From sequence record NC_100371.1: a stretch of DNA of 64,000 bases. One strand, 5' to 3'. Below, piece after piece: positions 5,192-45,629 of the stretch; position 1 is the stretch's first letter; the number at the start of each line of letters is the position of its first letter. A program made the position numbers and the translations under genes. The DNA comes from a phage. The notes below the pieces were generated by a model that was given only the letters and a program-made list of their open reading frames with translations, was not told where the DNA came from and searched no databases.

Positions 5192-5268
5192 TGGTCTCCA
5201 CGGAGTGATTCGAACACTCGACCTCCTGATCCCAAATCAGGCGCTCTACCAAGCTGAGCTACGCGGAG
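5192..5268 (-). tRNA. tRNA-Pro (anticodon UGG)
   Basis: Hand-folded cloverleaf: 7-bp acceptor stem, GTTCGAAT T-loop, anticodon loop TTTGGGA, encoded CCA. Confidence 0.75.
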
Positions 5269-5279
5269 TATTTATTATT

Positions 5280-5354
5280 TGGTGGCCCTGGGTGGAATTG
5301 AACCACCGTCTGGCGATTATGAGTCGCTTGCTTGAACCTTCCAGCTACAGGGCC
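5280..5354 (-). tRNA. tRNA-Met (anticodon CAU; could be initiator or Ile-lysidine type)
   Basis: Acceptor GGCCCTG/CAGGGCC, T-arm GGTGGTTCAATTCCACC, anticodon loop CTCATAA, encoded CCA. Confidence 0.7.
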
Positions 5355-5355
5355 A

Positions 5356-5431
5356 TGGTGCTGATGGCAGGACTTGAACCTGCAACCTATTGATTACAAA
5401 TCAATTGCACTGCCAATTGTGCTACATCAGC
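5356..5431 (-). tRNA. tRNA-Thr (anticodon UGU)
   Basis: Perfect 7-bp acceptor stem, D-stem GCAC/GTGC, anticodon loop TTTGTAA, T-arm GCAGGTTCAAGTCCTGC, CCA. Confidence 0.75.
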
Positions 5432-5435
5432 AAAA

Positions 5436-5534
5436 GGTGCTAGGTGATGGAATCGAACCATCTATGTATTCAACGACTACCTCGTCTATTTTCAGGATTA
5501 AAAATCCTCGCCCTTGCCAAAGGGCTTACCTAGC
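5436..5534 (-). tRNA. atypical tRNA-like gene (long variable region; anticodon not assignable by eye)
   Basis: Perfect acceptor pairing GCTAGGT/ACCTAGC and canonical T-arm GATGGTTCGATTCCATC, but about 99 nt long with an unusual anticodon-arm region (AGGAT-TTTTA-ATCCT); no complete encoded CCA. Confidence 0.4.
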
Positions 5535-5632
5535 TCAGCATGTTGACCATGTTGCTAGTCGGCGATGACGACTGTAACATTTGATAATCCGGTTCTGCTT
5601 CCGGCTTTCGCTTAATTACAAGGTCAACAATA

Positions 5633-5723
5633 TGGCAGAGGATAATGGAATCGAACCATCATCGAGTCATCCTCAACGGGACGGTTTTCAAGACCGCTTG
5701 AGCACCATTGCTCCCTACCCTCT
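5633..5723 (-). tRNA. tRNA-Ser (anticodon UGA), type II
   Basis: Acceptor AGAGGGT/ATCCTCT, anticodon loop CTTGAAA, long variable arm, T-arm GATGGTTCGATTCCATT, CCA. Confidence 0.7.
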
Positions 5724-5837
5724 TTTATAAACAATACTGATAATGACACTGATTTTCGAGCAGTTAGTGACTAGTATAAACGACGATAAATATCAATGCC
5801 ATTATCTGTATGATTTATGCATTTAAAAATATAAATT

Positions 5838-5925
5838 TGGTGGTGAGTGATGGAGTCGAACCACCCGAATCGCAATGATAACAGATTTACAGTCTGCCCC
5901 GCTACCCCTACGGAATTAACTCACC
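5838..5925 (-). tRNA. tRNA-Tyr (anticodon GUA), type II
   Basis: Acceptor GGTGAGT/ACTCACC, anticodon loop CTGTAAA, long variable arm, CCA. Confidence 0.7.
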
Positions 5926-6055
5926 TAAATACTAATATTTAAATTCTTTTTAAAATAGCTAGTGTTCTAACCACTAACTATGAGGTATCGGTAAAGTGGT
6001 TACCGCCACTTGCCGAAGATTTACTCTGCTAAAGTAAGCTACATTAAAAAGAACT

Positions 6056-6130
6056 TGGCACCCCGTACTGGACTCGAACCAGTGTCAACGGCTTAGAAGG
6101 CCGCTGCTTTATCCACTAAGCTAACAGGGC
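6056..6130 (-). tRNA. tRNA-Arg (anticodon UCU)
   Basis: Acceptor GCCCTGT/ACGGGGT, anticodon loop CTTCTAA, T-arm ACTGGTTCGAGTCCAGT, CCA. Confidence 0.75.
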
Positions 6131-39833: not shown

Positions 39834-40118
39834 ATGAGCAATGGTGTTAGCAATAGTGCTGCAGAGTTTAAAGTGATCTGTAAAGGAACTTATTGGATAG
39901 TGAAACAGAAAGTGTACCTATTCGGTTTCATACCGTTTTGGCAGAGATTTTGCTGGGGAGCTAACGAGCTTAAGAGATACGCAACCAAGGCTATGGCACT
40001 TATTGGTATAGCTGAATACATTGCTGCCAGGGACAGAGAGGGTAAAACTTGTTACTACACTGCTGACGAGATTCGTAACAGTGTTTACGTTCCACAACCG
40101 CCCGATGGAGACCGCTGA
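39834..40118 (+). CDS. hypothetical protein
   Basis: 94 aa; AAGGAGAAG RBS. Confidence 0.4.
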   Translation: MSNGVSNSAAEFKVICKGTYWIVKQKVYLFGFIPFWQRFCWGANELKRYATKAMALIGIAEYIAARDREGKTCYYTADEIRNSVYVPQPPDGDR

Positions 40119-40342
40119 TGAAAGTTAAAGTTTTAGATTCAAGCTTCTATATTGGTCAGGAGCCCTTAGTGGGGAAAGTGTTTACCGCTATCCCTAACGA
40201 AGATTATCCTGACCTTTTAAAAATAAAAGGTGCAGATCTTATTGCCGCTGGTGCATCCCAGGAATGCTTTGACAGTCAGTGGACCTACAACTTTGCCCTA
40301 GGAGAGGATGTGGAGATAGTGGAGGACGATCATGAAGGTTAA
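40118..40342 (+). CDS. small acidic protein, paralog family A
   Basis: MKVKVLDSSFYIGQ...KGADLIAAGA...EIVEDDHEG. Confidence 0.5.
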   Translation: MKVKVLDSSFYIGQEPLVGKVFTAIPNEDYPDLLKIKGADLIAAGASQECFDSQWTYNFALGEDVEIVEDDHEG

Positions 40343-40586
40343 AATTCTTGACTCTAACGTCTACTTGGGACAATCCTTCCTGAAAGGAAAGGTAGTACCT
40401 GCTGTATACTTCGAAGGGTTGCCGTGGGACGATCCTGTGCGGCAAAATCACAGCCATGTAGGCCACAATGTGGTGTTCATCTTGGGATCAGACCTGATCG
40501 CGGCTGGTGCCCCGGAATATTATTTCGGAGAGGACTCGTATTATGCCTTTGGGGCAGGGTCAGATGCAGATATTTTAGAGCTGTGA
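40332..40586 (+). CDS. small acidic protein, paralog family A
   Basis: MKVKILDSNVYLGQ...GSDLIAAGA. Confidence 0.5.
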   Translation: MKVKILDSNVYLGQSFLKGKVVPAVYFEGLPWDDPVRQNHSHVGHNVVFILGSDLIAAGAPEYYFGEDSYYAFGAGSDADILEL

Positions 40587-40598
40587 TGGGGAACTGTT

Positions 40599-40997
40599 GT
40601 GAAAAATAAACTGTTCAAAGTTACAATGAAAATTCGCGGAGCTTGGAGCGTAAAGCAAGGGCGTATCCCCGAATTTGAGAAAGACTTCTACGTAGTCTCC
40701 ACCTCGGAGGAGGCTGCATGCTGGCAGGCTGGCTATGCCTATGCAAGAACCTGGTACGAAGGATACCAGACTGGAGGCTATGACGGAGAAATTGTCAGTA
40801 AGGGTGTGGAAGAAATTAATGTGTTGACAAGTGAAAAAGTTTTTGTTATAGTGCATCCAGATTCCAGAGTGAAGCATTACTGGAATGCCAGAACAAAAAC
40901 CTGGACACCGTTTGCAGATTCTGCTACACCACTTTTAAACCAGAAAGCTCTTGACTCTGCCCCAAGCTATGGGGTTGTTGAAGAAAAGATAAGCTGA
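40599..40997 (+). CDS. hypothetical protein, paralog family B
   Basis: ...VIVHPDSRVKHYWNARTKTWTP... is paralogous to 42804-43199. Confidence 0.45.
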   Translation: MKNKLFKVTMKIRGAWSVKQGRIPEFEKDFYVVSTSEEAACWQAGYAYARTWYEGYQTGGYDGEIVSKGVEEINVLTSEKVFVIVHPDSRVKHYWNARTKTWTPFADSATPLLNQKALDSAPSYGVVEEKIS

Positions 40998-41310: not shown

Positions 41311-41339
41311 GTTGACACAACGCTTCAGATTTAGTATCA
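41311..41339 (+). promoter_or_regulatory. sigma70-like promoter
   Basis: TTGACA-N17-TATCAT upstream of the HPF-like gene. Confidence 0.55.
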
Positions 41340-41386
41340 TTGTTTTCAAAGAGGGGTTGGTCCCTCTTCTTTAAAAGGAACACATT

Positions 41387-41704
41387 ATGCAAATTGAAAT
41401 CACTGGCAACGTAGAGATCACTGAAGGTATGGTGTCTTTCATTTCCAACAAAATGTCCAAGCTGGAGCGTTTGCACCCCTCTGCCAACTATGCACGTGTG
41501 AGTGTAAAAGTTGAAAATGATCACCAGGAAGTTATGGCTTTCATTTTTGACACTTCTGGAAAAGAAGTTATCGCCAAAGCTAAAGGTAGTGATGCTTACG
41601 AGGCAACTGACCGTATGGTAGATGTTGCAGCACGCCAGTTGGCTAAGTGTGGTGGAAAGAAAGGTAAGGGAAAAGGCAAAGTAAAGATTGACTTTTTAGA
41701 TTAA
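41387..41704 (+). CDS. ribosome hibernation promoting factor (HPF/RaiA/YfiA)-like protein
   Basis: MQIEITGNVEITEGM...KLERLHP...RVSVKVE...AKAKGSDAYEATDRMVDVAARQLAK parallels bacterial HPF (MQLNITGNNVEITEAL...); Lys/Gly-rich tail. Confidence 0.6.
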   Translation: MQIEITGNVEITEGMVSFISNKMSKLERLHPSANYARVSVKVENDHQEVMAFIFDTSGKEVIAKAKGSDAYEATDRMVDVAARQLAKCGGKKGKGKGKVKIDFLD

Positions 41705-41841
41705 GGTGCTACAATGGGCACGATTAAGAAATTAATCCCAAATGTGGAGATTGCATGCTTTGAAATTATGTTTGCAATCGCAGTTGTAGTTAATGTGTTA
41801 GGTTACGGCTATTAATATCAAATAATTGAGGAGACCTCTAA

Positions 41842-42111
41842 ATGAAAATTAAATTATTCCAAACTGAGCTGGCAGACAAAAACTGTGGACTGGTTGAAGG
41901 CATGATCGTTGAAGCACAACCAGTTGACTACATGAAGGTGGTTCGTGATGCCCTGGGTGAAGGTTTTGATCTGATGGAGCCAGCTCTGCGAGAAGATGTC
42001 ATCGAAATGGCTAAAAAGCACACACCGGAAGGTTTGGTAGTGTTTGTTGCTCCAGGTAATGGAGAGGAGTTGATTGTAACTCCGGATGTGTATGAGGTTG
42101 TAGAAGAGTAA
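41842..42111 (+). CDS. small acidic protein, MKIK-type
   Basis: 89 aa ending EVVEE. Confidence 0.45.
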   Translation: MKIKLFQTELADKNCGLVEGMIVEAQPVDYMKVVRDALGEGFDLMEPALREDVIEMAKKHTPEGLVVFVAPGNGEELIVTPDVYEVVEE

Positions 42112-42203
42112 TCCTGCTTGGGTTGGAATACTTTCCTCGACAAGAAAGGTTTATAATTATTTGTGGGAAAGGAATCCCCATCTCTTACCAGAGGTGATAC
42201 TAT

Positions 42204-42467
42204 ATGATTGTTTATTTTAAAACTTCAGGTGGATACCCTGATTCTCAAAGCTTGATTGGAAAAACGTGCACAGCATACTCACCTCTTGATGAGGAGGTAA
42301 GTGGTATCCTACGAGATATGTATCGGATTGATCCACAAGAAGCTTTTGATCAAAACCTTGTATTTGTCAAGGGATCAGACATAAAGTCTTTGGGGGCATT
42401 CCCTGAAGCAGATGATGATGCTGTTTATTCGTTTATGACACCTTTTGAAGCTATGGTTGTGGGGTAA
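42204..42467 (+). CDS. small acidic protein
   Basis: 87 aa. Confidence 0.45.
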   Translation: MIVYFKTSGGYPDSQSLIGKTCTAYSPLDEEVSGILRDMYRIDPQEAFDQNLVFVKGSDIKSLGAFPEADDDAVYSFMTPFEAMVVG

Positions 42468-42471
42468 GAAT

Positions 42472-42804
42472 ATGAAAGTACGCTTTATTGGTGAAACAAT
42501 TCCTGTGCATCTCCGGTCTCCTGAAGACTCTGCAGATCTTGCATCTCAAAAGGCGAGAGGGTATGATAAGAAAGTGATCTCAAGCAATGTAGAGCTTGAG
42601 GCCACCAGTCTGCCTGACCCAGCTGCATTCTTCAATCATTATGGCTACTATTTTAGCAATCTGATGAATATTGGTGAGCTTGTGTTTATTAGTGGTGGAG
42701 AGATAGTTAGCAAGCTTGGTGGAGATCCGGATATCTTTCATGAAACCTGTCCTTTTGCATTTGTGGTGGGTTCAGATGTGGAAGTTATTGAGGAGGTTCG
42801 GTAA
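42472..42804 (+). CDS. small acidic protein, MKVR-type
   Basis: Internal ATG at 42472 chosen; ends VIEEVR. Confidence 0.45.
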   Translation: MKVRFIGETIPVHLRSPEDSADLASQKARGYDKKVISSNVELEATSLPDPAAFFNHYGYYFSNLMNIGELVFISGGEIVSKLGGDPDIFHETCPFAFVVGSDVEVIEEVR

Positions 42805-43199
42805 TGGTAAGTCTATACCGTGTTGAGTATAGCTCGGATACTGTATACAACGTAAGAAGCAAAGATCGCAGTGATAGAGTGCAAGAAATGTATGTTCTTG
42901 CAGATAGTCCGTTATCTGCAGCGTTCAAGGCAGGAGCTCTTGCATCTCGTTGGAAATTTGAGGGTGGATCTTTCTATGAAGAAACCCTTGAAGATTCTGT
43001 TGTTATTTCTTCTGTAGAGGTTTCAACCGACTACGAAGGGAAAAAGTTCGTAATGCGGCACCCACACAGCAATATTGCGTACTACTGGGATGTTCTGAAC
43101 AATGAGTGGACCCCTGATCTTCAGAAGGCCACTGTTCTAACCCCATTCCTGGCAGATAAGTTCCCACCAGAAGGTAATTTATCTGCACTGTTTCAGTAA
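42804..43199 (+). CDS. hypothetical protein, paralog family B
   Basis: ...VMRHPHSNIAYYWDVLNNEWTP... is paralogous to 40599-40997. Confidence 0.45.
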   Translation: MVSLYRVEYSSDTVYNVRSKDRSDRVQEMYVLADSPLSAAFKAGALASRWKFEGGSFYEETLEDSVVISSVEVSTDYEGKKFVMRHPHSNIAYYWDVLNNEWTPDLQKATVLTPFLADKFPPEGNLSALFQ

Positions 43200-43275
43200 T
43201 TTTATGCCACACAGGTGTTGACAACACCAACCCTGTGTGCAATAATACCTTCATCTTAACAAGATAGGAGACCGA

Positions 43276-45597: not shown

Positions 45598-45603
45598 CGA
45601 CAA

Positions 45604-45629
45604 AGAGGGGCCTTGGCCCCTCTTTTTTA
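45604..45629 (+). terminator. rho-independent terminator
   Basis: AGAGGGGCC-TT-GGCCCCTCT hairpin followed by TTTTTT. Confidence 0.6.

Follow-up and report, generated by a model that had tools for sequence, protein, structure and literature searches.

A conserved HPF/YfiA-family gene behind a predicted host-type promoter in an rV5-like phage, and its possible place on idle host ribosomes

Here we describe a small gene of the HPF/YfiA family and its surroundings in a stretch of phage DNA of 64,000 nucleotides (sequence record NC_100371.1), the whole of which is called the window below. Between positions 40500 and 42500 the window is 100% identical to Escherichia phage vB_EcoM-ECP32 (MK883718.1), of the genus Vequintavirus, the rV5-like myoviruses. 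The gene lies on the + strand at 41387-41704, is likewise 100% identical to MK883718.1, and encodes, from an ATG start, 105 amino acids followed by a stop; its product is identical to QDB73762.1 and is the ortholog of rV5 ORF144 (ABI79209). A ribosome-binding site, AAGGA, can be read at 41375-41379 (+), 7 nt 5′ of the ATG, and one is annotated at the equivalent position in the record of phage Murica. The protein comprises a folded S30AE/HPF domain (residues 1-89; 41387-41653, +) with the order beta-alpha-beta-beta-beta-alpha in an AlphaFold2 model, and a flexible Lys/Gly-rich C-terminal tail (residues 90-105; 41654-41701, +) of low pLDDT and charge +4. Upstream, a predicted sigma-70-type promoter equivalent to P144 of rV5 occupies 41312-41340 (+), with TTGACA at 41312-41317, a 17-nt spacer and TATCAT at 41335-41340. 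Downstream, five co-directional small genes equivalent to rV5 ORF145-149 follow at 41714-43199 (+), in what would be the same transcription unit, and the first intrinsic terminator found by a terminator scan, a 10-bp GC-rich stem followed by a T run, stands at 45602-45625 (+).

The family assignment rests on several layers of evidence. The name 'sigma 54 modulation factor' is an older one for the HPF/YfiA family, and it is the label that QDB73762.1 carries in its record. The first-pass annotation had recognized an HPF/RaiA-like protein in this reading frame, and the Pfam search that it proposed returned PF02482 (Ribosomal_S30AE) at E=1.2e-12, with 48.8 bits against a gathering score of 23.7; the score against TIGR00741 (HPF/YfiA family) is 47.0, the cut-off being 40.9. 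The likeness had been placed in a conserved N-terminal beta-alpha core; this core is indeed present, but the PF02482 match covers the whole domain, from residue 3 to residue 88 (profile positions 1-83 of 88), and not its N-terminal part only. The best sequence matches in the PDB are chains of E. coli HPF, at E about 1e-11. The AlphaFold2 model, of mean pLDDT 83.6, shows the canonical order of elements, with strands at 2-7, 33-42, 47-55 and 60-67 and helices at 13-29 and 70-89. When it is compared with the PDB by Foldseek, the best 37 matches are all HPF/YfiA/pY proteins, with an rmsd of 1.0 A to V. cholerae HPF and of 1.2 A to E. coli HPF in the 100S ribosome. Furthermore, at the near-invariant positions defined from a 29-sequence family alignment (G7, T12, K22, G58, D69, Y71 and D75, in the numbering of its first sequence, given also as phage numbering), the phage protein carries the family consensus residue in seven out of seven cases. 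Its scores, its fold and its invariant residues make the protein a member of the HPF/YfiA family, whose defining activity is to bind vacant ribosomes at the decoding region of the 30S subunit and to inhibit translation.

Within that family it stands apart from the two E. coli proteins. It scores 55.4 bits against the enterobacterial short HPF equivalog NF007780, whose cut-off is 125, and 19.3 bits against the RaiA/YfiA equivalog NF007654, whose cut-off is 158; it is an equivalog neither of E. coli HPF nor of RaiA. Long HPF, the self-dimerising type found outside the gammaproteobacteria, carries a C-terminal dimerisation domain after a linker and totals about 180-190 amino acids. The phage protein, with 105 residues of which 91-105 are disordered, does not belong to this class, and a Pfam search of it found no second domain corresponding to the long-HPF dimerisation domain. 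It is a short-type protein.

Many features are shared with E. coli short HPF (YhbH; PDB 2RQL, 4V8H, 6H4N): the two have the same single-domain fold, 40-44% identity depending on the alignment, an acidic core (pI 5.6 in the phage protein and 5.7 in E. coli HPF), a short basic C-terminus and the residues K26, E60, R83, K87 and K91 in common. The phage protein differs by the loss of one residue in the beta1-alpha1 loop, the gain of one in the beta3-beta4 loop, a tail that is Lys/Gly-rich and 10 residues longer, the replacement of T53, K80 and K89, and a location outside any rpoN operon. Enterobacterial short HPF acts together with RMF in turning 90S into 100S dimers, and the phage is not known to have an RMF partner. 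E. coli RaiA/YfiA (protein Y; PDB 4V8I, 1N3G) shares the family, the fold and, as predicted for the phage protein, the binding site, and both proteins extend at the C-terminus beyond the length of short HPF; however, they are only 23% identical, and the tail of RaiA, with its acidic end (…EEVEEE), is unrelated in sequence to the Lys/Gly-rich tail of the phage protein.

How much of the ribosome-binding surface has been kept can be judged from the contacts of enterobacterial HPF with 16S rRNA and uS9 listed in a 2025 cryo-EM preprint (bioRxiv 10.1101/2025.10.07.680626), whose positions we mapped on the alignment. K26, E60, R83, K87 and K91 are kept; R83 is described there as the single arginine that touches m4Cm1402. 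Q29 is replaced by R, a common family variant, and the position of N8 is deleted. Three other contacts are replaced in both phage lineages in which the gene is found, the rV5-like phages and a divergent sister lineage: T53, the contact to m2G966 in the enterobacterial protein (same preprint) and a T in 10 of 16 cellular sequences, is F or R; K80, a K in 14 of the 16, is V or T; and K89, K or R in 12 of the 16, is G or S. Between the two lineages only five of the 11 mapped contact positions are identical (K25, R28, F54, R83 and K87; the count leaves out the N8 deletion and the variable R33, T86 and H95), while 69% of the folded core is, so that no added constraint is visible on the canonical surface compared with the remainder of the phage protein.

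The Lys/Gly-rich tail noted in the first-pass annotation is borne out: residues 88-105 read CGGKKGKGKGKVKIDFLD, with a net charge of +4 over residues 89-105, they are encoded by a purine-rich tract, and residues 91-105 have pLDDT below 50 and are predicted to be disordered. The extra positive charge of the phage protein relative to E. coli HPF resides entirely in this tail. Among orthologs the tail varies, being truncated in Murica (99 aa), ending in FGE in rV5 and having a different sequence in the orthologs P0003 and P0004. We read it as a probable generic polycationic appendage for rRNA binding rather than as a specific motif.

Turning to expression, the promoter sequence TTGACA-N17-TATCAT agrees with the consensus at 11 of 12 positions, and its −35 block, AAACTGTTGACACA, is invariant in four rV5-like phages and also in the divergent L002/L004 lineage, where the identity of the HPF falls to 64%. 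In the window 36 sites fit the pattern TTGACA-N16-18-TAnnnT where 3.07 would be expected, and none of 100 shuffled sequences has as many. Both the excess and the invariance of the −35 block argue that the site is more than a chance occurrence. Since its −35 element is perfect and of host type, transcription would be carried out by unmodified host RNA polymerase, probably early in infection. The genome paper of rV5 likewise lists 33 host-type promoters, spread across the genome (PMC3606486). In the window, matches to the pattern switch strand in blocks, being mostly on the + strand from about 11.9 to 47.4 kb and mostly on the − strand elsewhere; the genes at 39-44 kb lie on the + strand, where the matches are also mostly +.

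The sequence of the promoter was thus correctly read in the first-pass annotation, although to call it the gene's own is an overstatement, as P144 heads a multi-gene unit, ORF144-149. Indeed, the curated rV5 record (DQ832317) gives the order P144, ORF144-149, P150 (equivalent to 43218-43246 in the window), ORF150-158 and then the first annotated terminator, a rho-independent one at the site equivalent to 45602-45625. From the HPF gene to the last of the equivalents of ORF145-149 no terminator is annotated in rV5 or predicted by the terminator scan, and these small genes would form one polycistronic block with the HPF gene as its first. In the last codons of the HPF gene (41688-41715, +), directly 5′ of ORF145, a hydrophobic reading frame of 33 aa at 41714-41815, lies another promoter-like sequence, TTGACT-N16-TACAAT, which has an upstream TG and 10 of 12 consensus matches.

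The predicted 5′ leader contains a stem-loop at 41349-41368 (+), with a stem of 7 bp and a 6-nt loop, which begins about 2 nt after the transcription start expected from the promoter. Its folding energy of −10.4 kcal/mol corresponds to a z-score of only −0.74, not significant against shuffled sequence; in Murica and nomo the stem is interrupted by a mismatch, and the sister lineage represented by L002 lacks the hairpin. We therefore do not claim it as a functional element, such as a 5′ stabiliser of the mRNA. The motif AGAGGG…CCCTCT is common to this hairpin and to the terminator at 45602-45625, these being its only two occurrences in the window. At 3960-4000 of L002 the 3′ half of the hairpin is missing and GAGGG appears to serve as Shine-Dalgarno sequence; the comparison suggests that an insertion may have created the hairpin together with a new ribosome-binding site. 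A search of Rfam around the gene gave nothing relevant, its sole match being a sub-threshold one to sraA at the terminator.

The neighbouring genes offer no clue as to the context in which the protein acts. Pfam gave no match at or near the curated cut-offs for the genes that adjoin the HPF gene, and the equivalents of ORF145-149 all fall in PHROGs of unknown function. The reading frame of 89 aa at 41842-42111 (+), which corresponds to rV5 ORF146, was considered as a second HPF and rejected: it has no Pfam match, and hhalign gives a probability of 0.3% against the HPF alignment. ORF146 is nevertheless labelled 'sigma 54 modulation factor' in the records of ECP32, nomo, pangalan and other phages, a label that seems to have slipped from the adjoining HPF gene and then to have been propagated. 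Paralogous small genes occur nearby, at 40118-40586, 40599-40997 and 42804-43199 (all +): the tandem pair 40118/40332 shows 40% identity, and the pair 40599/42804, both in phrog_7379, shows 26% and flanks the HPF block. Elsewhere in the window, at 5192-6130 on the − strand, there are six clustered tRNA-like genes (Pro, Met, Thr, Ser, Arg), among which one of 99 nt at 5436-5534 is given a four-base anticodon (atcc) by ARAGORN and may be an intron-containing or degenerate tRNA.

The gene is under strong purifying selection: the six pairings of ECP32, rV5, Murica and nomo give dN/dS values of 0.05-0.14. The measure is usable only within the rV5-like phages, since saturation of synonymous sites (pS 0.78) precludes it for the 64%-identical lineage. 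The gene recurs, in the same place, in 117 rV5-like phage records, and this retention together with the selection rules out that it is a decaying or dead relic. It also occupies the same position in the sister lineage, which is uncultured and syntenic, with contigs of about 125 kb and about 73-76% nucleotide identity to known Vequintaviruses over a third of the region; the protein there is 64% identical.

Beyond these phages the protein is isolated. A word-indexed homolog search reached close relatives only, for which reason an exhaustive search of 1.84 billion cluster representatives was used, and in it only the sister lineage scores below E=1e-10. The second-ranking match, P0006 (1160 aa, E=1.4e-8), is a false positive, built of nine PPC (pre-peptidase C-terminal) domains and without homology to HPF; its score is a sum over nine matched stretches. 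Cellular homologs are at most 44% identical, the closest being short HPFs of enterobacterial type. This distance, together with the isolation, means that the transfer was not recent or that the protein has evolved fast; on the sequence comparisons, the gene appears to be old in the phage lineage.

Much of what is described above was already on record, contrary to the novelty that the first-pass annotation implied. The rV5 record DQ832317 has shown ORF144 as 'sigma 54 modulation factor', with 'Sigma70-type promoter; P144' directly 5′ of it, since its deposition in 2006. The rV5 protein, at the same position and behind the same promoter, is 96% identical to that of ECP32 over 105 aa; its four substitutions (N21H, T56N and the last two residues, LD versus GE) make no functional distinction. 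In all, 118 phage records carry the gene, many of which label the product ribosome hibernation factor, HPF or RaiA. Mizuno et al. (2019; Nat Commun 10:752, PMC6375957) described HPF-encoding phages, namely rV5, FV3, JES-2013, FFH2 and typing phage 14, placed the HPFs of E. coli phages among gammaproteobacterial sequences, and proposed that a viral HPF might compete with the cellular protein and so prevent the formation of ribosome dimers. Mathieu et al. (2020; PMC6969025) cited hpf as an auxiliary gene of rV5 phages, and our literature search found no functional study of a phage HPF later than 2019. The gene, its family and its promoter are already known.

Other large virulent phages carry S30AE-domain genes too, such as Cronobacter phage GAP32, Xanthomonas phage XaC1 and the members of PHROG 8990. 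These are independent acquisitions: the rV5-type protein has its own PHROG, 12469, which matches PHROG 8990 only at E=1e-6, and the HPF of GAP32 was grouped with Firmicutes sequences (Mizuno et al., 2019; PMC6375957).

An experiment of the kind proposed in the first-pass annotation, co-sedimentation with ribosomes and analysis of 100S dimers, has already been published for the rV5 ortholog, with no association detected (PMC6375957). When rV5 HPF was expressed in E. coli, mass spectrometry detected it in the crude extract and not in purified 70S or 100S ribosomes, and its expression had no discernible effect on the 100S peak, which was small in these late-exponential cells. The cells had been harvested at an OD600 of 1 and the ribosomes pelleted through a sucrose cushion with 500 mM NH4Cl, and Mizuno et al. 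themselves named growth phase and stripping by salt as possible causes of the negative result (PMC6375957). The supplementary data of that study allow a further step. In the ribosomes of the strain expressing viral HPF, 71 proteins were identified, and host HPF, RMF and RaiA are not among them (Supplementary Data 4, PMC6375957), whereas all three are listed for the crude extract from these cells (Supplementary Data 5); over the samples of Supplementary Data 2-5, host HPF and RMF appear in crude extract only. As the host's own factors were lost in the same ribosome preparation, the assay is no proof that the phage protein fails to bind; without a working positive control, the published negative is uninformative.

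The same data contain a weak hint in the other direction. Host RaiA was detected on ribosomes of a strain expressing viral bS21 with one spectrum and on those of a strain expressing viral bL12 with six, as many as the ribosomal protein S14; in the ribosome sample of the viral-HPF strain S14 again gave six spectra and RaiA none (PMC6375957 supplement). The absence of RaiA from this sample is what would be expected from competition for a shared site, with n=1 for each strain.

Taking these elements together, we lean, with some reserve, towards a ribosome-binding protein that occupies the canonical HPF site on the 30S subunit of idle ribosomes, competes there with host HPF and RaiA and places the dormant pool under phage control. 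According to this reading, a short-type HPF-family gene would have been acquired long ago by the phage lineage from a gammaproteobacterial host. Most likely, host RNA polymerase would transcribe it from the strong sigma-70-type promoter as the first of the block of small genes. The protein would then bind to idle host ribosomes at the HPF/YfiA site of their 30S subunit, in the channel for tRNA and mRNA between head and body, through the retained contacts K25, R28, E60, R83, K87 and K91, while the flexible Lys-rich tail would add non-specific affinity for rRNA. By competing with host HPF and RaiA at this site, it would probably have the net effect that the phage, and not the stress response of the host, sets the state of the non-translating ribosomes, a pool that would stay intact and quickly reusable in the slow-growing hosts of gut or sewage. 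That a phage HPF could modulate host ribosome activity during infection, as the first-pass annotation had suggested, is an inference.

In favour of this interpretation are the family and fold scores, the family residues, the kept contacts, the selection on the gene, the conserved promoter and the hint from RaiA. Against it are the one experiment, which found no rV5 HPF on 70S or 100S ribosomes and an unchanged 100S peak (PMC6375957), the replacement of T53, K80 and K89 in both lineages on a surface with no visible added constraint, and scores far below the equivalog cut-offs of HPF (55 vs 125) and RaiA (19 vs 158). Moreover, blocking ribosomes would hinder phage translation too, and the benefit is not obvious.

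In the main rival reading, the protein works against hibernation. It would then act as a decoy whose weak or transient binding at the HPF/RaiA site displaces host RaiA and HPF, and RMF by means of its longer tail, so that 100S or RaiA-locked ribosomes resume translation for the phage. The idea goes back to Mizuno et al. (2019; PMC6375957), and the contacts lost in both lineages fit a lower affinity, as would loss of the protein in the 500 mM NH4Cl wash; host HPF and RMF, however, were lost in that wash as well, which makes salt sensitivity non-discriminating. The tail exceeds that of E. coli HPF by 10 residues, and RaiA too has a longer C-terminal tail, one that extends toward the RMF site (bioRxiv 10.1101/2025.10.07.680626), but the poor conservation of the phage tail and its truncation in Murica argue against a precise role in blocking RMF. 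Host RaiA is missing from ribosomes only in the viral-HPF sample, an observation that nevertheless rests on few spectra and n=1, and the small 100S peak showed no effect of the protein (PMC6375957). Neither the lost contacts nor the RaiA hint separates the two readings firmly. We regard the decoy as unlikely, though it deserves to be kept in sight. Its sharper version would have the binding deliberately weakened by the loss of T53, K80 and K89 and the Lys-rich tail added, giving a protein that evicts RaiA, HPF and RMF, leaves easily and wakes translation in stationary phase, and that is not a hibernation factor at all; put so specifically, it is a shade more doubtful.

A role away from the ribosome appears improbable to us. 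The HPF fold, which resembles a dsRBD, might have been repurposed as a scaffold that binds a non-ribosomal target, without any action on the ribosome, and precedents are at hand: T7 Gp1.2, which inhibits the host dGTPase, and SPO1 Acb4, a sponge for the cyclic nucleotides of CBASS, are small phage proteins with non-ribosomal targets whose closest structural matches include HPF/YfiA. Gp1.2 is also the first match of the phage HPF model outside the family (E=2.8e-3). Ribosome association was not detected (PMC6375957), several canonical contacts are changed, and the lineage is isolated, with one other cluster below E=1e-10 among the 1.84 billion representatives. Nevertheless, what has been reported for Gp1.2 and Acb4 is a structural resemblance to HPF and not sequence homology, whereas the phage protein is 40-44% identical to E. 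coli HPF and scores above the family cut-offs; it keeps R83, K87 and K26, which are key to contact with rRNA, and its model matches Gp1.2 far more weakly (TM 0.45) than HPF (TM 0.82).

Least probable is a general shut-off of host translation, in which an early protein would block initiation on free 30S and 70S and suppress host and defence proteins while phage mRNAs escape by other means: the host-type promoter with its perfect −35 element, the first place of the gene in its unit and the blocking of the A and P sites by HPF-family members (bioRxiv 10.1101/2025.10.07.680626) would suit it, but these proteins bind vacant ribosomes without discriminating between mRNAs, leaving no evident way to spare phage messages, and cultures expressing the protein from pBAD24 reached an OD600 of 1 with unchanged ribosome profiles and no reported toxicity, growth not having been quantified (PMC6375957).

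As a discovery the locus carries little weight, given that gene, family and promoter are public and that the viral auxiliary gene has been in discussion since 2019. What a phage gains from a homolog of a hibernation factor bears on how virulent phages deal with dormant and slow-growing hosts. It has also some relevance for phage therapy, Vequintaviruses being common candidates for therapy and biocontrol. In this context, the published negative should not be read as meaning that the protein does not bind ribosomes.

Finally, some of the records that carry the gene are mislabelled, or probably so. In MT884008.2, MT884010.2 and OR062528.1 its product is called 'ATP-dependent protease La type I', plainly the wrong name for an S30AE-domain protein of 105 aa. 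Furthermore, eighteen records of 'Campylobacter phage' (MG0656xx, host C. jejuni) share 94-95% identity with rV5-like coliphages in the HPF region; their host and organism labels are probably wrong, and the sequences may possibly derive from contaminating coliphages.
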